From a virus (Duplodnaviria > Caudoviricetes), in IMG/VR virus record IMGVR_UViG_3300036851_000252, positions 1 through 53,777 of that record: 53,777 nucleotides of DNA, one strand, 5' to 3'. Below, piece by piece: positions 9,889-49,140 of the stretch. The notes beneath the pieces are model-generated. The model was not told the origin of the DNA. It did no database searches and saw only the letters and a program-made list of their open reading frames with translations. Within the stretch, counting starts at the first letter, position 1; every line of letters begins with the position of its first letter. The translations under genes were made by a program, and so were the position numbers.

Positions 9889-10965
9889 ATGAAGTTTAGA
9901 CACAACGATTACTCAAAGCACATGCCTCACTTGGATTTCAAGTATGACGGGGAATACTATCCTGAAGACGGTGCACTTCCAGATCCACAGATTGATCCAT
10001 TCATTCCTGGATCTAGAGTTGCTTTGAATAAGGTTGGTGTCTCAGGCGTTGATCTTCCAGTTCAGTTGAAGCGTCGTGACGGTGAAATTCAAACATTGCA
10101 CGCTCGCGTATCACTGTACGGTTCACTTGATAATCCAGAAGCAAAGGGATTGAACCTTAGTCGCTTCCCAATCCTGATGACAGAGACAATTGCAAATCAT
10201 TTGTCAATTGAGGGATTGAAGGATGTGTTGGTAGGATTGCGTGAGAAGCAGGGGTCTAACGATGTTTATTGCAAACTGGCGTTTAAGTATCCTTGGACAC
10301 AAGAAGCACTTCGCACACGCAAAGAGCTTCCAACTGATGCAGATCCAAAAGACATCTTTAAGACTGTAGAAGGTGTCAACTTGAGCCACGACAAGATGGT
10401 CGGACACATTTTCTACGATTGTATTCTTGAAGGTCAATTACATAAAGTACCAAAAACCTTCCGCAAGGTTGTACAATCAGATCAGGCTTCATATCAAACA
10501 CCTGTTACAGTAGAAGTAGATGAATTCAGATTCTTCTTGACAGTCAATTATGTTTACAGTAGCACTTGCCCATGCAGTTTTGAGCTCGCTCAAGACGCAA
10601 CACAGAAGCGTGGTGTGGCGGCAAATGGACACTCACAGCGCAGCATCGCCAAGCTGACTGTCCAGTTTGATCCCGATAAAGAGATTGTATGGATTGAGGA
10701 CGTTGTTGAAATGGCTCGTCGCCAAGTTCCAACAGAAGTTGTTATTATCTGCAAGCGTAGAGATGAACAGGCTTTTGCTGAATTGAACGGCAGCAACCTA
10801 CTTTTTACGGAAGATGCTGCTCGTCTTCTTTATCAGGGCTTTGACGAGTGGTTTAAAGCTGGGAAAATCTCAGATTTCTCAATCGTGACTGACCACATTG
10901 AATCATTACACCCATGGAATGCTACGGCGGTAGTTTCAAAAGGTGTTGCAGGTGGGTTGAGATAA
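9889..10965 (+). CDS. folE2: GTP cyclohydrolase IB (FolE2)
   Basis: KVGVSGV, KGLNLSRF, STCPCS, HSQRS, FTEDAAR, ESLHPWNA. Confidence 0.92.
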   Translation: MKFRHNDYSKHMPHLDFKYDGEYYPEDGALPDPQIDPFIPGSRVALNKVGVSGVDLPVQLKRRDGEIQTLHARVSLYGSLDNPEAKGLNLSRFPILMTETIANHLSIEGLKDVLVGLREKQGSNDVYCKLAFKYPWTQEALRTRKELPTDADPKDIFKTVEGVNLSHDKMVGHIFYDCILEGQLHKVPKTFRKVVQSDQASYQTPVTVEVDEFRFFLTVNYVYSSTCPCSFELAQDATQKRGVAANGHSQRSIAKLTVQFDPDKEIVWIEDVVEMARRQVPTEVVIICKRRDEQAFAELNGSNLLFTEDAARLLYQGFDEWFKAGKISDFSIVTDHIESLHPWNATAVVSKGVAGGLR

Positions 10966-12537: not shown

Positions 12538-13731
12538 ATGTCTCCCTTTGCGCACAAACTTTTCAACGAACTCTCGGCTCTTGTTGCATCTGAAAACGAT
12601 GCATTCTACAAGCGCGACTACGAACGTGATGGTCGTCACTATCGCGTATTTGCGTACCGTCTAGCTTCGTACACTGAATTCTTGTTGCCATCAGCAATCG
12701 AATGTCGTGGTACGATGTTCGAGATCACCGATCCTGCTTATGAACCAGTCGGAATGAAGCGTCTGGTCTCTCTTCCAATGGAGAAGTTCTGGAATCTTCA
12801 CGAGAATCCAGCAACGATGAACTTGGATCTATCAACGATCATTTCTGTTGAAACGAAAGCTGACGGTTCGTTGATTTCAACGTACTTGCATATCAATTCG
12901 ATCAATGGCAACAACGACGCACCTCTTGGTGTGAAGTCGAAGACTTCGATCGATTCGGATCAGGTGCATGCTGTTTATGCATTCTTGAAGCTTCCAGAGA
13001 ACGCCAAGTTTGCTCAGGAACTTCATCGTCTTGCAGAGCGTAACTACACGGTGAACATGGAGTGGTGTGCTCCTGAGAATCGTATCGTTCTTGCATATCA
13101 GGAATCTTCGTTGACGGTGCTCAATATTCGTGACAATCTCACGGGTTTGTACATTCCGAAGCAAAGTGAAGAGCTGTTAGAATTCAACGAAGTCAAAAAT
13201 CGTTGGATCGAGTCCATTCCTTTTGAAAATCCTGTGCAGTTCATCAAGTCGATCAATCAAATGACTGATGTGGAAGGCTTTGTGGCGCTTCTGTCATCTG
13301 GTCAGCGTGTGAAGATCAAGACGGACTGGTACGCAGCTCTTCACAAGACGAAGGATTCTGTGAATTCAGATCGTCGTCTATACGAAGTGGTGCTTGCTGA
13401 GGGTGCGGATGATCTTCGTGCAATGTTCTTCAACGATCCATGGGTGCTCAATCGCATCACTTGGATGCAGGAGTACGTTGCCGAGAAGTACAACGCACTG
13501 TCCAAGCAGGTGGAGACGTTCTACGATGCAAACAAGGGCCTTGCTCGCAAGGACTTTGCAATTCTCGGTCAGAAGCTGCTCGACCGTCATGCATTCAAGC
13601 TTTGCATGGAGCGATATGTTGGCCGTGAAGTGTCTGTCAAAGATTACATGGCAGCAAAATGGAAAGAGTTCGGGATCAAGGATGATCCCGAGCCATCCAC
13701 CGACGATGTGCAGGTGGCTGTTAACGAGTGA
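12538..13731 (+). CDS. rnlA: T4 Rnl1-like RNA ligase 1
   Basis: ECRG, EKFWN, KADGSLI (motif I), NRIV, EGFV, KIKTDWY. Confidence 0.92.
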   Translation: MSPFAHKLFNELSALVASENDAFYKRDYERDGRHYRVFAYRLASYTEFLLPSAIECRGTMFEITDPAYEPVGMKRLVSLPMEKFWNLHENPATMNLDLSTIISVETKADGSLISTYLHINSINGNNDAPLGVKSKTSIDSDQVHAVYAFLKLPENAKFAQELHRLAERNYTVNMEWCAPENRIVLAYQESSLTVLNIRDNLTGLYIPKQSEELLEFNEVKNRWIESIPFENPVQFIKSINQMTDVEGFVALLSSGQRVKIKTDWYAALHKTKDSVNSDRRLYEVVLAEGADDLRAMFFNDPWVLNRITWMQEYVAEKYNALSKQVETFYDANKGLARKDFAILGQKLLDRHAFKLCMERYVGREVSVKDYMAAKWKEFGIKDDPEPSTDDVQVAVNE

Positions 13732-21007: not shown

Positions 21008-21016
21008 AGATTCTAT

Positions 21017-21091
21017 CGACAAGTAGCTCATCGTCAGAGCGCTGCCCACCAGGGGCAGAGGTAGGTGGGTTAGTACCATCCTTGTCGACCA
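21017..21091 (+). tRNA. Atypical tRNA-like RNA (loop CACCAGG)
   Basis: Cloverleaf plus CCA; D-loop ATCGTCA, T-loop GTTAGTA, no U33. Confidence 0.6.
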
Positions 21092-21097
21092 AATTAC

Positions 21098-21172
21098 GGG
21101 CATGTAGCTCATCGTCAGAGCGCTCTCCTCACCCGAGAGAGGTAGGTAGTTCAATTCTATCCTTGCCCACCA
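21098..21172 (+). tRNA. Atypical tRNA-like RNA (loop CTCACCC, nominal Val CAC)
   Basis: Cloverleaf plus CCA; same D arm as the previous copy; C37. Confidence 0.65.
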
Positions 21173-21176
21173 AAGT

Positions 21177-21334
21177 TTTCCGTTGCGTAGAATAGAGATA
21201 CATCGTCTGTAAAACGAGTGCCCTAAAAAGGCGTGGGGGTTCGAGTCCCTCCTTCCCAACCAATTTATACTTTTTGGGAAGTGGCGAAATGGTAGACGCG
21301 CTAAAATATCCTCTAGTCGACTTTTTCTCGGAAA
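21177..21334 (+). ncRNA. Y-RNA-like element 1, enclosing a circularly permuted tRNA-Tyr(GTA)
   Basis: Shared scaffold; internal order is anticodon arm, V arm, T arm, acceptor 3'+ACCA, linker, acceptor 5', D arm. Confidence 0.8.
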
Positions 21335-21337
21335 TTT

Positions 21338-21423
21338 GGGAGTGCGGTGAAGTTGGAGAGTCACGGCAGACTGTAAATCTGTTGCCTCGCGCTGAATAGG
21401 TTCGAATCCTATCACTCCCACCA
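21338..21423 (+). tRNA. tRNA-Tyr(GTA)
   Basis: GCAGA-CTGTAAA-TCTGT, long V arm, CCA. Confidence 0.93.
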
Positions 21424-21563
21424 ATTCTGTTGCGTAGTGTAAAGATACTTCACATCAACTGCTTGCCGTGTGGTTCGAATCCCACTATCTCCACTAGACG
21501 GAGATATAGTTCAGAGGTAGAACAGCAGTCTCAAAAAGACTTTATGCGACTTTTTCTCAGAAT
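21424..21563 (+). ncRNA. Y-RNA-like element 2 (YrlA-like permuted tRNA domain)
   Basis: Scaffold; ACTGCT/AGCAGT stem, T arm GTTCGAATC, closed acceptor TATCTCC-actagac-GGAGATA, D arm GTTC-agaggta-GAAC. Confidence 0.82.
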
Positions 21564-21576
21564 GTTTTTAAGGTTT

Positions 21577-21710
21577 GATCTCGTTGCGTAGTTAAGAGGT
21601 ACTTCATTGGTTCAATTCCAATATTTCCCGCAGAGCACATTACTAAGTGTGCTGTATGGGAAATACGCCGACTGGTCGGCATATTCTTTTAACGACTTTA
21701 TCTCGAGACC
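21577..21710 (+). ncRNA. Y-RNA-like element 3 (permuted tRNA domain, extended acceptor hairpin)
   Basis: Scaffold; ATTGG-TTCAATT-CCAAT, ATTTCCC...GGGAAAT, GCCGA-ctgg-TCGGC. Confidence 0.8.
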
Positions 21711-21716
21711 ATGTTT

Positions 21717-21790
21717 TCATCCTGCTGCGTAGGCCCGAGTTACTTCAATTGAAATGAAAAAACACTCAATGCCGATTTTGTCTCAGGTGA
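21717..21790 (+). ncRNA. Y-RNA-like element 4 (short)
   Basis: CCTG-CTGCGTAG-GCCCGAG-TTACTTCA...CTCAATGC-CGAT-TTTGTCT-CAGG. Confidence 0.7.
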
Positions 21791-22195: not shown

Positions 22196-22318
22196 TGTTT
22201 TGTTGCGTAGATAACAGATACTTCGGTAAATTCGCTTCGGCGATAGTAGGTTCAAATCCTATAAACACGGTAGTGATACTGTGCTTGTAAATCCTGTTTT
22301 CAACTTTGTCTCAAAACA
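22196..22318 (+). ncRNA. Y-RNA-like element 5 (retains a T arm)
   Basis: TGTTTTG/CAAAACA closing stem; scaffold; TCGC-ttcg-GCGA, GTAGG-TTCAAAT-CCTAT. Confidence 0.75.
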
Positions 22319-23067: not shown

Positions 23068-23145
23068 GTCCACGTAGTTCAGATGGATTAGAATGCAACG
23101 CTACGAACGTTGAGGTCGGGGGTTCAAGTCCCTCCGTGGATGCCA
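23068..23145 (+). tRNA. tRNA-Arg(ACG)
   Basis: CAACG-CTACGAA-CGTTG, CCA. Confidence 0.93.
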
Positions 23146-23163
23146 AATAGTAAATACTGTAAT

Positions 23164-23649
23164 ATGAAGCTCATGGAATTAGCCAATAACAAAGAAATCA
23201 TTCTAGTCTCAGGCAACCTTTGCTCTGGTAAGGGTCATTATTGTTCAACTGCATACCCAGAGTATAGCCAGATCGGCGTTTCGTCGATCGTTAGAGCATT
23301 GGCTAAGATGAACACCCGCAGTGAGCTTTCTACAACGAAAGATTTTGATACACGAATTGCTCAAAGATTGATTCAATTCATCGAGAAAGATTCCTACAAC
23401 AAGATCATTGTTGATGGTATTCGTCAGCTTTCAATCATGCAAGCTCTGCAGAACCATTTTGGTGACCAAATTAAAGACATCATTTGGTTAGATGTTCCTG
23501 ATGATGTTGCCAAAGAACGTTTCGCCAATCGTGCAGCAGCAAAAGACGATCAAACGTACGACGATGCTCGTGCGGGTGATAGAAACTTGGGTATTGAAGA
23601 TGTTGAGAGCTACATTCGTGCTAATCATAAGGTAGTTCCCAACAGTTGA
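23164..23649 (+). CDS. P-loop NMP-kinase-like protein
   Basis: SGNLCSGKG, IIVDGIR, WLDVP...ERF; ATG 7 nt after TAAATA. Confidence 0.8.
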   Translation: MKLMELANNKEIILVSGNLCSGKGHYCSTAYPEYSQIGVSSIVRALAKMNTRSELSTTKDFDTRIAQRLIQFIEKDSYNKIIVDGIRQLSIMQALQNHFGDQIKDIIWLDVPDDVAKERFANRAAAKDDQTYDDARAGDRNLGIEDVESYIRANHKVVPNS

Positions 23650-23680: not shown

Positions 23681-24541
23681 ATGTATAATGCAGTATTAAA
23701 ATCACAAATAGATCAATCAGTCAATTTCGTAGAAGAGGAACTCGTAGGATTCATAGAATCACGATACGTTCGCAAGGTAGATGATTATTTCATTTGCTAC
23801 CTATCTTCACAAACCGGATGCAATCGTGGATGCAAGTTCTGTCACTTGACAGCAACCAAGCAAATGGCATTCATGGATTCAGATTACCAATCGTTTATTG
23901 GACAAGCATGTCAGGTGTTCCGCCATTACAAACGCGAGAAGCCAGCAAAGTATGTTCATTACAACTTCATGGCTCGTGGCGAAGCTTTAGCAAACAAATT
24001 CATCATCAATGAAGCAGACAAGATTTTGGGAACTCTTGGTGAGCTTGCAATCAAAGACAAGTTGTATCCAAAGTTCAACATCTCAACGATCATGCCAAAG
24101 ACATTGAAGGTATCTCTTACAGACATCTTCAAGATGGTCACACCAACGATGTACTATTCGTTGTATAGTGTTGACGATGCATTTAGAAAAGAATGGTTAC
24201 CAGCAGCAATGCCAGTAGACACAGCTCTGGATCTTTTGATGGATTATCAGTACATGTCAAAGAAGATCATTAAGATCCACTTTGCCTTCATCAAAGGCCA
24301 GAACGATTCAAAAGAAAGTTTGCTTGAAATGTGCAATGAACTCAATAAGAGAAAGTTGCTTTGTGAGTTCAACCTCGTTCGATACAATCCATTCTCACCA
24401 ATTCAAGGTGAAGAATCTGATGATCAAACGATCTATGAGAACTTGGAGTTGCTGAGAGAGCACTTCAAAGGCGATGTACAAATGATTCCACGTGTCGGAT
24501 TCGATGTAAAAGCATCGTGCGGCATGTTTGTTGATAAGTGA
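23681..24541 (+). CDS. RlmN/Cfr-family radical-SAM RNA methyltransferase
   Basis: CYLSSQTGCNRGCKFC, FMARGEAL, NLVRYNP, VKASCG. Confidence 0.88.
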   Translation: MYNAVLKSQIDQSVNFVEEELVGFIESRYVRKVDDYFICYLSSQTGCNRGCKFCHLTATKQMAFMDSDYQSFIGQACQVFRHYKREKPAKYVHYNFMARGEALANKFIINEADKILGTLGELAIKDKLYPKFNISTIMPKTLKVSLTDIFKMVTPTMYYSLYSVDDAFRKEWLPAAMPVDTALDLLMDYQYMSKKIIKIHFAFIKGQNDSKESLLEMCNELNKRKLLCEFNLVRYNPFSPIQGEESDDQTIYENLELLREHFKGDVQMIPRVGFDVKASCGMFVDK

Positions 24542-24544
24542 TAT

Positions 24545-24620
24545 GCAACCGTAGCTCAGCTGGTAGAGCACTGGCCTGAAGAGCCGGGTGTCACTGGTTC
24601 AATTCCAGTCGGTTGCACCA
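24545..24620 (+). tRNA. tRNA-Phe(GAA)
   Basis: CTGGC-CTGAAGA-GCCGG, CCA. Confidence 0.92.
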
Positions 24621-24627
24621 AGATTAT

Positions 24628-24703
24628 GCTGTCGTAGCTGAGATGGTATTAGCGCCACGCTGAAAACGTGGAGACGTTCGTTCGATACGACCCGACGGCA
24701 CCA
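24628..24703 (+). tRNA. tRNA-Phe(GAA), second copy
   Basis: CCACG-CTGAAAA-CGTGG, CCA. Confidence 0.88.
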
Positions 24704-26058: not shown

Positions 26059-26133
26059 GCAGGTATAATTCAGTGGTAGAATGTCTCGTTGCCAACGAGA
26101 ATGTCGCGAGTTCGAGCCTCGCTACCTGCTCCA
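26059..26133 (+). tRNA. tRNA-Gly(GCC)
   Basis: TCTCG-TTGCCAA-CGAGA, TCCA. Confidence 0.92.
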
Positions 26134-26148
26134 ATTGAGATATGTACA

Positions 26149-26652
26149 ATGAGCAACGTATACAGAGGAACTGGCTATATCCAGTATGATCCTCATCGTG
26201 GAAGCATGAAAAGCCGCACACAAGGATGGTGCATTGTCAATGTCGATCGCGAATTGACACGCTATTATCGTTGGTGGCTCGATAAGGAGATCTTGAATCC
26301 ACTTGGCCTTCCAAAGGGAGGTCTCGATCAACCAGCTTGGGATGCACACATCTCAATCGTTCGCGGTGAGAGATTATATCCTGACAAGGAACATCTATGG
26401 AAGAAGTATCAGGGTAAGAAGGTTGATTTCTGGTACGAGCACCCCTTTTGGTACGATATCGGCCGTGATAATAAGCAGCCTGGATATTTTTTTACAGTTG
26501 ACGTACAGTCAGCAGACTTAATGAATATTCGCCTCGAGTTGGGGTTGAAGGCTGATTGGAATTTCCACTTGACGTTCGGCAGAACGTATCAGTACGCAAA
26601 GGATCCTAACTACGGCGCGACTTGGATGCAAAAAGAGGCAATGATCACATGA
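26149..26652 (+). CDS. 2H phosphoesterase-family protein
   Basis: Two H-x-S/T motifs: AHISIV and FHLTFG. Confidence 0.7.
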   Translation: MSNVYRGTGYIQYDPHRGSMKSRTQGWCIVNVDRELTRYYRWWLDKEILNPLGLPKGGLDQPAWDAHISIVRGERLYPDKEHLWKKYQGKKVDFWYEHPFWYDIGRDNKQPGYFFTVDVQSADLMNIRLELGLKADWNFHLTFGRTYQYAKDPNYGATWMQKEAMIT

Positions 26653-29006: not shown

Positions 29007-29099
29007 GCTCCCATGGTGTAACGGTTAGCACACTGCGCTTATATCGCAGCTTTGCCTCCAGATTAGAGGACAGTGTCGGTTCGAATCCGGCTGGGAGTA
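29007..29099 (+). tRNA. tRNA-Ile(TAT) with long variable arm
   Basis: CTGCG-CTTATAT-CGCAG, about 25-nt V region, canonical D and T arms, CCA not encoded. Confidence 0.82.
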
Positions 29100-29110
29100 C
29101 AAAGGAATGT

Positions 29111-34906: not shown

Positions 34907-34991
34907 CGGGATGTGGTGGAATTGGCAGACACACTTGCCTTAGGAGCAAGCGCCTAACAGCGTAGGGGTTCGAGTCCCCTTTTCCCGACCA
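34907..34991 (+). tRNA. tRNA-Leu(TAG)
   Basis: CTTGC-CTTAGGA-GCAAG, V arm, CCA. Confidence 0.88.
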
Positions 34992-47191: not shown

Positions 47192-47266
47192 TTGCTGTTG
47201 CGTAGGGAAGGGTTACTTCATACTTTTTGTATAAAACAAGCTCTCTTTTCGACTTTGACTCAGCAA
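47192..47266 (+). ncRNA. Y-RNA-like element 6 (short)
   Basis: TTGCTG-TTGCGTAG-GGAAGGG-TTACTTCA...CTCTTTT-CGAC-TTTGACT-CAGCAA. Confidence 0.8.
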
Positions 47267-47400: not shown

Positions 47401-47482
47401 GTCCGTTGCGTAGTGAACAGATACTTCATATTAAAGCCTCACGGCTTTGCCAAAAAAGACTGTTTGCGAATTTGACTCGGCC
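47401..47482 (+). ncRNA. Y-RNA-like element 7 (short)
   Basis: GTCCG-TTGCGTAG-TGAACAG-ATACTTCA...CTGTTTG-CGAA-TTTGACT-CGGCC. Confidence 0.8.
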
Positions 47483-47580: not shown

Positions 47581-49140
47581 ATGACAAAGTTGAATCAGAA
47601 GGGCGTATCGCGCCGCGCTACAGCACCAGTTGCAGTTAGCTACAATGGAAATCCACAGTTTGCACAGACAGAAGCTTTTGCTCTGTATGATCTTGTTGTG
47701 TCTCATTTCTTCGGAAAGGACACATTCTATGAATCAAACGATGAGCGCTTGAAGCGTCTTGAGACATTAGTTGCCGGCGTTGTTTCAACAGGCAACTTGC
47801 ACTTCATCGCAAACACAATTGTCAATGCTCGTCATGTGATGAACATGCGTTCTATGCCTCTTGTCCTTGCAGTACATTTTGCGAAGGCTCTTCGTGATCA
47901 GAACAAGCAGTACCCACACCTTCGTGAAGTCATTCGTGACGTAATCGGTCGTGCCGATCAGATCACTGATTTGTACGCTGTAGCTCTTGGTGTCTTCGGT
48001 TCGAAGAACAAGATTCCACTTGCTATCAAGCGTGGTGTTGCCGATGCGTTCAACAAGTTCAACGAGTACCAGTTCGCTAAGTACAACTCAAAGGCTGCTG
48101 TGAAGCTTAAGGACGTTCTTCGTATCGTCCACCCAAAGGGTTCAACTGAAGAGCAGGGTGCGTTGTTCAAGCGTATCATGACAGACACAATGGCTGTGGC
48201 TGACACGTGGGAAGCAAAGCTTTCACAGAACGGTCAGCTTGATGAGAAGGAAAAGAAGTCAAAGGCCGACCTTTGGGGCGATATGCTTGCAAAGGGCAAG
48301 GGGTTTGGTTACATGGCATTGCTTCGTAACCTTCGCAACATGTGGGAAGCTCCAATCACAGATGCAAACAAGGCAATCGTTTACGAGCGTCTTGCAGATC
48401 CAGCTGAAGTGAAGAAGAGCAAGCAGTTCCCATTCCGTTTCGTCAATGCAATGACAAACGTTGCTCAGTTTGGTGACTCGAAGTTGAAGCGTGCATTGTC
48501 TCGCGCCGTTGATGCCAGCCTTGGTAACTTGCCACAGCTTGGCAACGGTGTTTGGATCATCATCGACTGCTCAGGCAGCATGGGTGGTGAGCGTTTCGAG
48601 AACGCATCATTGTTTGCCGCAGCCCTTGCAAAGGCCAACGCTGATGCTAAGAACGTTGCAGTAACAATGTTCAGCGACAACGCTAAGCACGTTACGTTCA
48701 ATGGAGACAATCCTGTGTTGACGATTCAGGAAGGCTTCAAGAAGGAAATCTATGGTGGTGGCACCAACCTTCAGGCAGCTTTGGAATTGAAGAGCAAGCT
48801 TGGCTTTGAGCCAGACACTGTTATCGTGATCAGCGATATGCAGGTCAATGCATTGTCAGGCAGCCGCTATGGATCACGTGTAAACGTTGGTTCATTGTTC
48901 AAGTCAGGTACTGTCAAGGTTGCTATTAACGTAGCAGGCTATGCCAACACACCACTTACCGATCTTGATGGCTGGTATCAGTTGACGGGTTGGTCGGATC
49001 GTATCTTTGACTTCATCCCAGCAATGCGTGAGAAGCAGAGTGTCGTTCAGACATTGTCAACCCGTTATGAGGGTATCCCTAAGAGGGTAAAGACGGTTGA
49101 GGTCGAGGAAGTCGACGAAGTTGAAAAGGAAGCTGAATAA
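47581..49140 (+). CDS. rsr: Ro60/Rsr TROVE-domain RNA-binding protein with vWA domain
   Basis: DTFYE, KLKDVLRIVHPK, TWE, GYMALLRNLRN, SKQFPFRF, DCSGSM, GGTN, ISDMQ. Confidence 0.93.
   Translation: MTKLNQKGVSRRATAPVAVSYNGNPQFAQTEAFALYDLVVSHFFGKDTFYESNDERLKRLETLVAGVVSTGNLHFIANTIVNARHVMNMRSMPLVLAVHFAKALRDQNKQYPHLREVIRDVIGRADQITDLYAVALGVFGSKNKIPLAIKRGVADAFNKFNEYQFAKYNSKAAVKLKDVLRIVHPKGSTEEQGALFKRIMTDTMAVADTWEAKLSQNGQLDEKEKKSKADLWGDMLAKGKGFGYMALLRNLRNMWEAPITDANKAIVYERLADPAEVKKSKQFPFRFVNAMTNVAQFGDSKLKRALSRAVDASLGNLPQLGNGVWIIIDCSGSMGGERFENASLFAAALAKANADAKNVAVTMFSDNAKHVTFNGDNPVLTIQEGFKKEIYGGGTNLQAALELKSKLGFEPDTVIVISDMQVNALSGSRYGSRVNVGSLFKSGTVKVAINVAGYANTPLTDLDGWYQLTGWSDRIFDFIPAMREKQSVVQTLSTRYEGIPKRVKTVEVEEVDEVEKEAE

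Follow-up and report, generated by a model that had tools for sequence, protein, structure and literature searches.

A putative YrlA-type Y RNA gene with a permuted, tRNA-like head in a T4-like jumbo phage encoding Ro60

The window, by which we mean the whole stretch of 53,777 nucleotides that was analysed (IMG/VR record IMGVR_UViG_3300036851_000252, Caudoviricetes), carries seven small Y-RNA modules, as identified by a search for their paired handle and by comparison of the paralogues. One of them, M1 (21177-21334), is the subject of this study, and its elements are collected in Table 1 with the other six modules and the Ro60 gene. By reading of the sequence, the acceptor stem of M1 consists of seven Watson-Crick pairs and an A15-U48 pair is possible in the head. 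The anticodon-like stem has four pairs plus an A.G mismatch and is thus not a 5-bp stem. An ordinary tRNA-Tyr follows directly downstream, as had been noticed from the letters of the sequence before any database search (hereafter the sequence-only reading).

Table 1. Features of the M1 locus, its paralogues and the Ro60 gene in the window
Feature	Position	Strand	Description
P1 5′ strand of M1 handle	21177-21182	+	6 bp with 21329-21334
M1 5′ motif, UUGCGUAG plus 2 nt	21183-21192	+	Presumed Ro60-contact strand; variant of YrlA GNCGAAN0-1G
P2 5′ strand of M1	21193-21197	+	5 bp with 21311-21315
M1 junction AUACA, YUAY-type	21198-21202	+	UACUUC in paralogues; common to all modules
M1 anticodon-arm-like hairpin	21203-21217	+	4-bp stem UCGU/ACGA, 7-nt loop CUGUAAA; GTA at 21209-21211
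M1 class II variable arm	21219-21233	+	GCC / 7-nt loop / GGC, plus a U.G pair
M1 T arm	21235-21251	+	From sequence reading and ARAGORN circular call
M1 acceptor 3′ strand, discriminator A, encoded CCA	21252-21262	+	Strand 21252-21258, A21259, CCA 21260-21262
M1 AU-rich linker closing the acceptor stem	21263-21274	+	12 nt; presumed RNase P leader, U at -1
M1 acceptor 5′ strand, U8-G9, Leu-type D arm	21275-21299	+	Acceptor 5′ strand 21275-21281; U8 at 21282; D arm 21284-21299 with A14, G18, G19 and A21 present
M1 G26 and junction CUAAAAUAUC	21300-21310	+	Identical junction in L173
M1 P2 3′ strand, conserved 3′ motif CGACUUUUUCU, P1 3′ strand	21311-21334	+	From paralogue comparison
Ordinary tRNA-Tyr(gta)	21338-21423	+	ARAGORN; Rfam tRNA 49.5 bits; starts 3 nt past the M1 end
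Paralogue M2	21424-21563	+	Classical YrlA layout, handle running directly into head; no hairpin, no CCA
Paralogue M3	21579-21708	+	T arm, long closed acceptor-like stem, no D arm
Paralogue M4	21721-21787	+	Handle only
Paralogue M5	22196-22318	+	T arm and capped 7-bp stem
Paralogue M6	47192-47266	+	Handle only; 315 nt 5′ of the Ro60 ORF
Paralogue M7	47403-47480	+	Handle only; 101 nt 5′ of the Ro60 ORF
Ro60 orthologue	47581-49140	+	519 aa, TROVE and vWA

The sequence-only reading had described a complete, circularly permuted tRNA with an internal CCA, and every element that it named is found in M1 (21203-21299). In circular topology, ARAGORN called a tRNA in all three M1 slices tried, including an 86-nt tRNA-Tyr(gta) for slice 21203-21300, and this call together with the reading of all arms confirms the complete permuted cloverleaf with its internal A-CCA. 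Linear ARAGORN found no tRNA in the M1 slices and none at 21177-21334 in its scan of the window. Circular calls were made in 0 of 1000 dinucleotide-shuffled copies of M1 and in 1 of 2000 random, tRNA-free 98-nt slices of the window, that one slice being module M2. The amino-acid label that ARAGORN attaches to M1 varies with the slice ends; the native GTA loop was used in 237 of the 776 sub-slices that gave a call, and the remainder use loops made at artificial junctions. The minimum-free-energy fold contains the hairpins of the sequence-only reading, but its D arm is drawn with 5 bp in a shifted register and its acceptor stem gains an eighth pair. In the ensemble, pair probabilities reach ~0.8 in the anticodon-like stem, 0.94-1.0 in the acceptor stem, and 0.69-0.87 in P2. 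Fold stability is no greater than that of shuffled sequences (z = 0.01) and does not single out the region, and a promoter scan returned 7 sites against 5.2 expected, no excess over chance.

That this permuted tRNA lies inside a Y-like RNA, as also proposed earlier, is borne out by a handle common to the six paralogues and by the Ro60 gene in the window. The P1 helices of the seven modules are 3-7 bp long and different in sequence in each, with the same flanking motifs; over the 17 modules having both motifs, P1 is 3-8 bp and all sequences differ, while decoy motif pairs give 0-2 bp. P2 covaries among the paralogues (UAGAG/CUCUA, UAAAG/CUUUA, AACAG/CUGUU), and the window has 11 copies of TGCGTAG where 3.8 are expected, a number reached in 0 of 100 shuffles. 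The 5′ motif of M1, UGCGUAG, agrees at five of seven positions with the GNCGAAN0-1G motif, which the account in PMC4201824 defines for YrlA together with a conserved YUAY at the junction, and departs from it at two. Against the Rfam YrlA model (RF02553), M1 scores 15.8 bits, below the gathering score of 69, and Rfam at gathering thresholds identifies no YrlA in the window; M2, with a P1 of 6 bp, reaches 24.7 bits over its head, and 27.8 bits with the clade model R1 described below. M1 is on the Ro60 strand but 26 kb from the Ro60 gene, and so falls outside the 4-kb RNA-to-Ro60 reporting rule given in Chen et al. 2014 (PMC4201824). We consider it very likely that M1, in this uncultured T4-like jumbo phage with a Ro60 gene of its own, is a YrlA-type Y RNA gene.

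YrlA-class Y RNAs have been described as tRNA mimics that have neither an anticodon loop nor a free CCA end. It had been stated that M1 departs from YrlA in keeping an anticodon loop, which stands in comparison with Salmonella YrlA only and fails for the phage clade of YrlA-type modules. In a sample of 62 such modules, chosen without reference to the hairpin, 46 carry an anticodon-arm-like hairpin by a strict test, so the arm is typical of the clade rather than unique to M1, and its GUA is no mark of tyrosine. The loops of these 46 modules have U33 in 42 and a purine at position 37 in 44, whereas positions 34-35 vary freely, giving 21 different triplets; in a second clade sample, U33 and R37 were each kept in 21 of 21. 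Phage mimics thus usually keep a covarying arm with an anticodon-loop signature (U33, purine 37) in which the triplet is free. Typical clade members have a 5-nt (A/U)GGUC variable loop and no class II variable arm. Across the clade, the 5′ motif varies between GCGAAG, GUGUAG, GUGCAG, and GCGCAG. An encoded A-CCA with an AU-rich linker on a 7-bp acceptor stem was present in none of the 62.

The clade structure shows 94.5% pairing against 69.4% in shuffles and covariation at all seven acceptor pairs and at two hairpin pairs, and clade members score 30-45 bits (E 2e-7 to 4e-3) with the Rfam YrlA model. R1, a covariance model of the clade built without M1, matches M1 end to end (32.0 bits, E 3e-6). 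The junction at the position of M1 21300-21310 reads CUAAAAUC in G002 and most clade members, and CGACTTTTTCTC, from the 3′ motif region of M1, is identical in an unrelated contig (L218). In both handle and head, M1 as judged by its sequence matches this large phage clade of YrlA-type Y RNAs.

R1 also scores the true tandem tRNA junctions of the window at 38.7 and 34.9 bits, at or above the level of M1, so the head alone cannot separate a Y RNA from adjacent tRNAs, and only the flanks can do so. An origin of M1 from a tandem array, as the sequence-only reading had suggested, fits the published "dimeric tRNA transcript" model cited in bioRxiv 10.1101/312249. In one clade member (L176), the 5′ two-thirds are read as a whole tRNA by the Rfam tRNA model (31.3 bits), which gives direct sequence support for the published tRNA-dimer origin of YrlA RNAs. 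The like scores of M1 and true tandem junctions also speak for M1 as a dead remnant, a functionless junction of two decayed tandem tRNA genes, and tandem Phe-Phe tRNAs (24545-24703) and a tRNA-like remnant (21011-21097) do occur in the same array; Chen et al. discarded such matches as possible false positives (PMC4201824). However, the flanks of M1 are a covarying handle with conserved motifs rather than missing tRNA parts, and another phage has a homologue of the same layout immediately 5′ of its Ro60 gene. Further evidence against decay comes from a 246-nt contig from another study, which is ~94% identical and covers 21126-21370 with 15 differences. Among the 13 of these changes that were listed, six form three compensated pairs (in the T stem, 21237-21249, G-C to A-U; at acceptor 7-66, 21252-21281; and at acceptor 1-72, 21258-21275), and three are in the 12-nt linker; no pair is broken by any of them, and the ACCA has no listed change. 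In 200000 random sets of 13 changes, three or more compensated pairs never arose. We therefore regard the dead remnant as highly improbable. No other close relative was found, and with 0 changes in the 15 nt of the hairpin at ~6% divergence, this contig is too alike to put the hairpin to the test.

The closest homologue of M1 (L173) is in a complete 50-kb phage, where it is the third of four modules and the one mentioned above as directly upstream of a Ro60 ORF. It has in common with M1 the hairpin stem, the 3′ junction, the 7-bp acceptor stem, an NCCA, and the linker start AUUUAU, and reads CCGAAG at the position of the 5′ motif. The same hairpin stem also occurs in G002, with loop CUCUUAA and triplet CUU, where L173 has loop CUGUUAA and triplet GUU. 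The sequence-only reading had named a lack of conservation of the anticodon and the CCA in homologues as counting against its claims, and the result is divided: the anticodon is not conserved, whereas both the close relative and L173 retain the CCA, which none of the 62 sampled clade members has. The handle motifs of the window are also present 5′ of the Ro60 genes of L061, L126, L127, and the phage CcrColossus, and Ro60 is encoded by four of five module-carrying contigs in one set and by four of five in another. The two module contigs that have no Ro60 match are fragments, with CheckV completeness of 10% and 26%.

A pattern for the 5′ motif only gave at least 120 loci, and the 3′ motif lay downstream in three among the matches listed (L029, L123, and L038, the last of which was taken as a chance match) as well as in the multi-module contig L061. 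A viral scan for a T loop, NCCA, and AUUUA gave no new M1-like module among the matches listed; of the 130 listed, 105 are in ordinary tRNAs and 25 elsewhere, mostly resembling tmRNA 3′ ends, and one (L378) looks like a permuted tmRNA. Two metagenome scans, with an architecture pattern and with a 21-mer, had 0 matches, and a 16-mer from the D-arm junction had five, all of them by chance in coding DNA. In a collection of named phages the query matched through its tRNA-Tyr part only, and no Ro60 in named phages was more than 31% identical. A neighbouring 286-aa ORF used as a protein query found no close relatives.

A73, CCA, and a long variable arm are features of bacterial tRNA-Tyr. M1 has all three, and its D arm, T arm, and acceptor stem are nearest to tRNA-Leu. 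The phage's own tRNA-Leu(tag) is closest to the body of M1, and tRNA-Leu contigs align to M1 in permuted order, with the D-arm side matched up to 21301. The tyrosine identity first given to M1 is not supported, given this Leu-like body, the short mismatched stem, and a triplet that differs in both L173 and G002 and comes in 21 kinds among 46 clade modules. On the evidence of its sequence, M1 is not a tRNA-Tyr gene, and its head reads as a Leu-like class II tRNA joined to the anticodon-like hairpin that is standard in the clade.

If M1 were nonetheless a real split or permuted tRNA-Tyr gene, it would have to mature in two pieces, or by handle excision and ligation, for example by the phage's Rnl1 ligase, which is encoded at 12538-13731. 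Against this are not only the body, the stem, and the triplet but also the normal tRNA-Tyr 3 nt downstream and the flanks, which are a handle common to six non-tRNA modules and to RNAs adjoining Ro60 genes. In addition, no bacterial or phage enzyme is known to cut at positions 26/27, and according to 10.1101/312249 no counterpart of the splicing endonucleases has been reported in bacteria. In its favour, M1 has the full set of tRNA elements, including GUA, A73, CCA, and a long variable arm, and permuted tRNA genes that mature by way of a circular intermediate are found in algae and one archaeon (10.1101/312249). We hold a split tRNA-Tyr gene to be extremely improbable. With a complete tRNA in rotated order as its head, M1 probably imitates a tRNA and is carried by Ro60, rather than serving as a functional tRNA for tyrosine.

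Determinants of RNase P recognition include a 7-bp acceptor stem stacked on a 5-bp T stem, a U at -1, and a 3′ ACCA. By sequence reading, M1 has all of these, and a few clade members, M1 included, encode both a CCA end and an apparent RNase P site. We think it probable overall that M1 is a handle-bearing Y RNA that matures to a two-piece tRNA mimic held by Ro60. The 5′ and 3′ ends of M1 pair into the two-helix handle, which would bind the phage Ro60, and host RNase P would cut between 21274 and 21275. 3′ exonucleases may then trim back to the CCA at 21262, as reported for Mycobacterium smegmatis YrlA. The resulting nicked mimic, with predicted halves of 86 and 60 nt and its CCA end free, would stay on Ro60 and could engage a tRNA-handling factor of host or phage. 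Processing of the linker to a two-piece RNA, which the sequence-only reading had anticipated, has a direct precedent in M. smegmatis YrlA, which is cut by RNase P and bears CCA (PMC4201824). For the steps of RNase P cleavage and CCA maturation in M1 we put the chances at about even, while aminoacylation of the product seems unlikely.

A further possibility adds a function to the Y RNA reading and does not replace it. Here the hairpin would be an anticodon-loop decoy or sensor that mimics the anticodon arm of one particular tRNA, and through it the Ro60 particle would titrate, detect, or divert a host anticodon-loop nuclease or modification enzyme; the varying triplet would reflect different targets in each phage. 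The retention of U33 and purine 37 in a covarying stem while positions 34-35 vary is consistent with this, but loop positions under no constraint would equally give a varying triplet. The phage has a T4 Rnl1-type RNA ligase, a 2H phosphoesterase, and a P-loop kinase-like gene beside ~31 tRNAs; however, these RNA repair genes do not adjoin M1, and the analysis identified no nuclease partner. According to PMC11482910, a defence system is countered by Bas63 gp130, a phage Ro60-like protein, but the ppl system in that report is proposed to act on DNA. Taken together, we view the decoy function as a tentative idea with low probability.

Equally speculative is the broader proposal that M1, L173, and CcrColossus module 1 represent a phage Y RNA subclass whose maturation would give a tRNA that is complete apart from a nick, with a CCA end encoded in the genome, a 7-bp acceptor stem, and a true anticodon arm. 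Such a tRNA might be aminoacylated or act as anticodon-specific bait while tethered to Ro60. The "V" stem-loop of YrlA RNAs more broadly would then be an anticodon arm that is conserved as such, with a triplet matched to a target. M1 combines the anticodon-like arm with a class II variable arm, so the former cannot simply be equated with what the 2014 description calls the "variable arm". Enzymes that read anticodon loops or CCA ends are candidate Y RNA effectors, and if the nicked-tRNA reading is true, phage Ro60 particles would join directly in the contest between phage and host over tRNAs.

Several known systems resemble M1 in part. In the two-piece permuted tmRNA of alpha-proteobacteria and cyanobacteria, the order is T arm, acceptor 3′ strand, CCA, linker, and acceptor 5′ strand, and removal of the linker gives a chargeable RNA. 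The gene order of M1 is the same, and the tmRNA model RF04321 touches 21235-21281, but M1 differs in its full D arm and anticodon-like arm. We rejected M1 as a permuted tmRNA, as RF04321 scores 14-16 bits against a gathering score of 47 and M1 has neither a tag frame nor pseudoknots; ARAGORN identified no tmRNA in the window. The permuted tRNA genes of red algae and one archaeon likewise place the 3′ part first and have an acceptor stem that starts as a closed loop, and they mature to decoding tRNAs via splicing endonuclease and a circular intermediate, as outlined in 10.1101/312249. M1, by contrast, is broken at 26/27, next to a hairpin that is left intact, and its flanks make up a Y RNA handle.

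Among Y RNAs, the YrlA of M. smegmatis shares with M1 the permuted-tRNA head and the 7-bp acceptor-like stem. According to the description in PMC4201824, RNase P cleaves it within the closing loop, CCA is at the end of its 5′ half, and the halves are 82 and 65 nt long, near the 86 and 60 nt predicted for M1. There, CA is reported to be added after cleavage, while M1 has the full A-CCA in its DNA. M1 also has both an anticodon-like hairpin and a class II variable arm; the "V" stem-loop of M. smegmatis YrlA was compared by its description. Salmonella Typhimurium YrlA (RF02553), as presented in 10.1101/312249, resembles M1 in its end-paired handle, in a T arm that precedes the D arm, and in a closed acceptor stem, but its handle continues as the anticodon stem, the anticodon loop and CCA are absent, and the acceptor stem has 6 bp.

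The Caulobacter phage CcrColossus (JX100810.1) has a Y RNA cluster that resembles the modules of the window; for Y RNAs in this phage, PMC12135203 refers to Chen 2014. Five modules 5′ of the TROVE gene gp139 have GCGUAG, UACUUCG, and U-rich 3′ motifs, as in the window, although the Ro60 of CcrColossus is only 28.5% identical to that encoded here. All of its modules adjoin the Ro60 gene, whereas M1 sits in a tRNA array. Genome annotators label parts of such modules as tRNA genes, and the 5′ part of CcrColossus module 1 is annotated as tRNA-Gln in GenBank. Module 5 has a Leu-type D arm. Module 1 resembles M1 in its anticodon-like hairpin and in its acceptor stem of 7 bp. It likewise encodes an ACCA, and the linker behind this is 30 nt long with a hairpin of its own, against 12 nt in M1. 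As CcrColossus is culturable on Caulobacter, these ideas are testable at the bench.

M1, a Y-like RNA module lying in the tRNA array of the phage, carries a rotated tRNA as its head. The sequence-only reading had described a permuted tRNA here, and each of the elements it listed was found in the sequence at the coordinates it had assigned. As linear DNA the M1 interval gave no tRNA with ARAGORN; with circular topology a tRNA was called in all three M1 slices tried, and for the slice 21203-21300 this was tRNA-Tyr(gta), 86 nt long, in which the acceptor stem has 7 bp, the D stem 3 bp and the anticodon stem 4+1, and a variable arm is present. Dinucleotide shuffling abolished the call in all 1000 copies; among 2000 tRNA-free slices drawn at random from the window a single one was called, and this was a neighbouring Y-like module. 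The amino-acid label varies with the cut of the slice, because the native GTA loop is used in only 237 of the 776 M1 sub-slices that give a call. Universal tRNA positions readable in M1 are U8, A14, G18, G19, A21, G53, T54, T55, C56, A58 and C61, together with an A15-U48 pair, C32, U33, A37 and A73 followed by CCA. In the thermodynamic fold the hairpins appear, the D arm is shifted in register, and stability is no greater than that of shuffles.

The acceptor and T stems of M1 are under purifying selection. Among the sequencing runs listed, the complete stretch is present only in the probable source run, and none of those runs is an RNA run. A 246-nt soil metagenome contig from a different study spans 21126-21370 with 15 differences (~6% divergence), of which 13 were listed and classified. 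Three base pairs have changed on both sides (see table), and each half of the change at 21258+21275 recurs at a contig end in one more run. Of the other listed differences, the linker has three and the T loop one; beside P2 (the inner helix of the handle formed by the module ends) the A.G of M1 is swapped to G.A, and one more change lies upstream of P1 (the outer helix). No pair is broken by the 13 listed differences, and ACCA, hairpin, variable arm and D arm are free of them, the unchanged 15-nt hairpin being uninformative alone because divergence is only 6%. Random placement of 13 changes gave three compensated pairs in 0 of 200000 trials. The swapped mismatch, 21192/21316, may be a conserved non-canonical pair within the presumed Ro60 site.

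The handle recurs through the window and ties M1 genomically to Ro60. The window contains 11 copies of TGCGTAG where 3.8 are expected. In seven plus-strand copies the motif leads into a short helix strand and UAC(U/A)UC, with the complementary strand and a CGACUUUNNCUC-like sequence 60-150 nt further 3'. The flanks immediately outside these motifs pair as P1, with 3-8 bp and a distinct sequence in each of 17 modules (from the window and relatives, both motifs present); about 40 decoy motif pairs from the same relaxed expressions gave a P1 of 0-2 bp only. That one handle bears widely differing heads in M2-M7 suggests exchange of heads with tRNA genes of the array. These motifs are also found upstream of Ro60 genes in the contigs L126 (Ro60 54-58% identical), L127 (48-50%) and L061 (32%), and lie within the tRNA arrays of G002, a complete 345-kb phage with a 47% identical Ro60.

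Handle modules, selected genes and compensated base pairs of the window
Feature	Position	Strand	Remark
M1	21177-21334	+	rotated tRNA head
M2	21424-21563	+	full YrlA-type head
M3	21579-21708	+	T arm + capped stem
M4	21721-21787	+	no head
M5	22196-22318	+	T arm + capped stem
M6	47192-47266	+	no head; 315 nt upstream of Ro60 start
M7	47403-47480	+	no head; 101 nt upstream of Ro60 start
Ro60 orthologue	47581-49140	+	TROVE + vWA domains
T4 Rnl1-type RNA ligase	12538-13731		with its C-terminal domain
P-loop kinase-like ORF	23110-23649		scores under Pfam cut-offs
2H phosphoesterase	26089-26652		match also under cut-off
GTP cyclohydrolase I	9889-10965		FolE2-type
Radical-SAM	23681-24541		weak match
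T-stem pair	21237+21249		G-C -> A-U in relative
Acceptor pair 7-66	21252+21281		G-C -> A-U in relative
Acceptor pair 1-72	21258+21275		U-A -> G-C in relative

The IMG/VR virus record comprises 53777 bases, the entire window, with a completeness estimate of 17%, and encodes a T4-type major capsid gene. ARAGORN called 31 tRNA genes in the window, every one on the plus strand, and no tmRNA. Its tRNA-Ile(tat) at 29007-29100 is 94 nt long, with a long additional segment between anticodon arm and T arm and a 3' end of TAC, not CCA. A decayed tRNA-like copy at 21011-21097, given no ARAGORN call, lies directly 5' of tRNA-Val (21098-21172) and resembles it in acceptor stem and D arm, but has a broken T loop and an A at anticodon-loop position 33. 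The window also holds an RNA repair set of Rnl1-type ligase, kinase-like ORF and 2H phosphoesterase, and the FolE2-type cyclohydrolase and weak radical-SAM match could be parts of one 7-deazaguanine pathway.

M1 belongs to a clade of YrlA-type phage RNAs. A G002 module has a hairpin stem identical to that of M1, with loop CUCUUAA, and 36 viral loci matched a pattern built from this stem, of which visual inspection put ~26 down as Y-like modules and ~10 as coding DNA or genuine tRNA-Ser genes. The Rfam YrlA model gives such modules 30-45 bits (E 2e-7 to 4e-3), not reaching its gathering score of 69, and aligns the hairpin as an insertion 3' of the conserved CUAC. Against circularity, a hairpin-independent sample was drawn with the D arm and 3' junction only, giving 66 distinct matches, 62 of which have the T arm 5' of the D arm. 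A strict hairpin (stem 4-5 bp, loop 7 nt, 3-6 nt ahead of the T stem) is present in 46 of these 62, and most of the remaining 16 have a weaker stem there by eye. Among the 46 loops U33 occurs in 42, purine 37 in 44, A38 in 42 and U36 in 33, while positions 34 and 35 are unconstrained (21 distinct triplets); in 41 the spacer leading to the T stem reads (G)AGGUC or UGGUC, as is usual for a variable loop of class I. In another sample, stem fixed and loop free, U33 and R37 each occur in 21/21. In the hairpin-independent sample (loci L238-L317), U36 followed by A37 and A38 is the pattern of ANN-codon-reading tRNAs with t6A37. Aligning 53 of 57 non-redundant modules (L241, L244, L280 and L290, tandem-tRNA-like or unrelated DNA, were excluded) gave 94.5% rotated cloverleaf pairing, against 69.4% for shuffles and 33-49% for slid partners. 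In this alignment the two loop-proximal hairpin pairs show 23 and 16 double changes and the acceptor pairs covary 7/7 in tRNA register; D stem pairing carries no information, since the search pattern fixed it.

Could M1 simply be a junction of tandem tRNA genes? R1, a covariance model of the clade built without M1, matched M1 over its full length at 32.0 bits, and also matched a Phe-Phe junction at 38.7 bits and a tRNA-Arg/decayed tRNA junction at 34.9 bits. This is the pitfall remarked on by Chen et al., who discarded YrlA matches overlapping tandem tRNA genes (PMC4201824). What sets M1 apart from a tandem junction is its flanks, which form the handle instead of supplying the missing tRNA parts.

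As a Y-like RNA, M1 has the clade's handle, YUAY-type junction, hairpin and 3' junction CUAAAAU, and departs from it in three ways. First, the clade's 5-nt loop gives way to a class II variable arm as a second hairpin; since M1 has both hairpin and variable arm, the clade hairpin is the counterpart of the anticodon arm. Second, M1 is Leu-like in its T arm, acceptor stem and D arm: the nearest of the window's tRNAs to the M1 body is tRNA-Leu(tag) at 34907-34991, and genuine tRNA-Leu contigs of other metagenomes align to M1 in permuted order. Third, A-CCA and a 12-nt AU-rich linker close the 7-bp acceptor stem. NCCA follows the acceptor strand in 0 of the 62 sampled clade modules, and encoded NCCA with a linker on a 7-bp stem is seen again in L173, a complete 50-kb phage, and in module 1 of the Caulobacter phage CcrColossus.

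The M1-like module of L173 is the third of four immediately upstream of the Ro60 ORF and has the canonical handle motif CCGAAG. Features in common with M1 are the hairpin context (UUACAUCGUCUGU, then a base that varies, then AAACGAG), the 7-bp stem, the junction CUAAAAUAUC and the linker start AUUUAU, with GCCA in place of ACCA. The row of four Y-like modules (705-205, minus strand) consists of two short, one standard and one with the encoded GCCA. CcrColossus (L237 355-1150; JX100810.1) has a cluster of five Y-like modules upstream of its TROVE gene; module 1 combines a 7-bp stem with ACCA and a linker of 30 nt, compared with 12 nt in M1, and its 5' part is the GenBank tRNA-Gln at record 109217-109284. 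Class II-type D arms are found in modules 4 and 5. On the plus strand of a 98.7-kb viral contig (L378, ~200-300), a T arm, acceptor strand, ACCA, 25-nt linker and complementary acceptor strand probably represent a permuted (two-piece) tmRNA gene.

RNase P substrate features include a 12-bp acceptor-T stack, U at -1 and a 3' RCCA. From such features and the precedent of M. smegmatis YrlA, RNase P would be predicted to cut M1 at 21274/21275, with 3' trimming back to the CCA end at 21262, leaving halves of ~86 and ~60 nt joined via acceptor stem and handle. The outer ends could come from ordinary tRNA processing, since M1 lies between a tRNA-Val ending at 21172 and a tRNA-Tyr starting at 21338; in a promoter scan, sites were no commoner than chance. 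An anticodon-loop-reading enzyme is a reasonable, if improbable, candidate effector of the M1 head, because the U33/R37 frame is kept with the triplet free, and because the phage has RNA repair genes and a phage Ro60-like protein is reported to counter a defence system (PMC11482910).

On origin, the Rfam tRNA model takes the 5' two-thirds of the clade member L176 for an entire tRNA, scoring 31.3 bits (gathering score 29), with the P1 strand as acceptor strand, UA at positions 8-9, a degenerate D arm, the hairpin as anticodon arm, then UGGUC and a T arm. This agrees with the "dimeric tRNA transcript" model credited to Sim and Wolin 2018 (bioRxiv 10.1101/312249).

In the accessible parts of the YrlA literature we found no interpretation of the "V" stem-loop as an anticodon arm with a U33/R37 signature, no genomically encoded NCCA with linker, no class II head, and no set of seven Y RNA paralogues scattered through a tRNA array; these four features may be partly known. 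Already in print are YrlA-type Y RNAs, their occurrence in phages and their likeness to permuted tRNAs (PMC4201824; 10.1101/312249), a YrlA that is cut by RNase P and carries CCA in one species, M. smegmatis (PMC4201824), and the idea of an origin from tRNA dimers (10.1101/312249). The hairpin that we read as an anticodon arm was, in contrast, regarded as a variable region by Chen et al. 2014 (PMC4201824, section 6).
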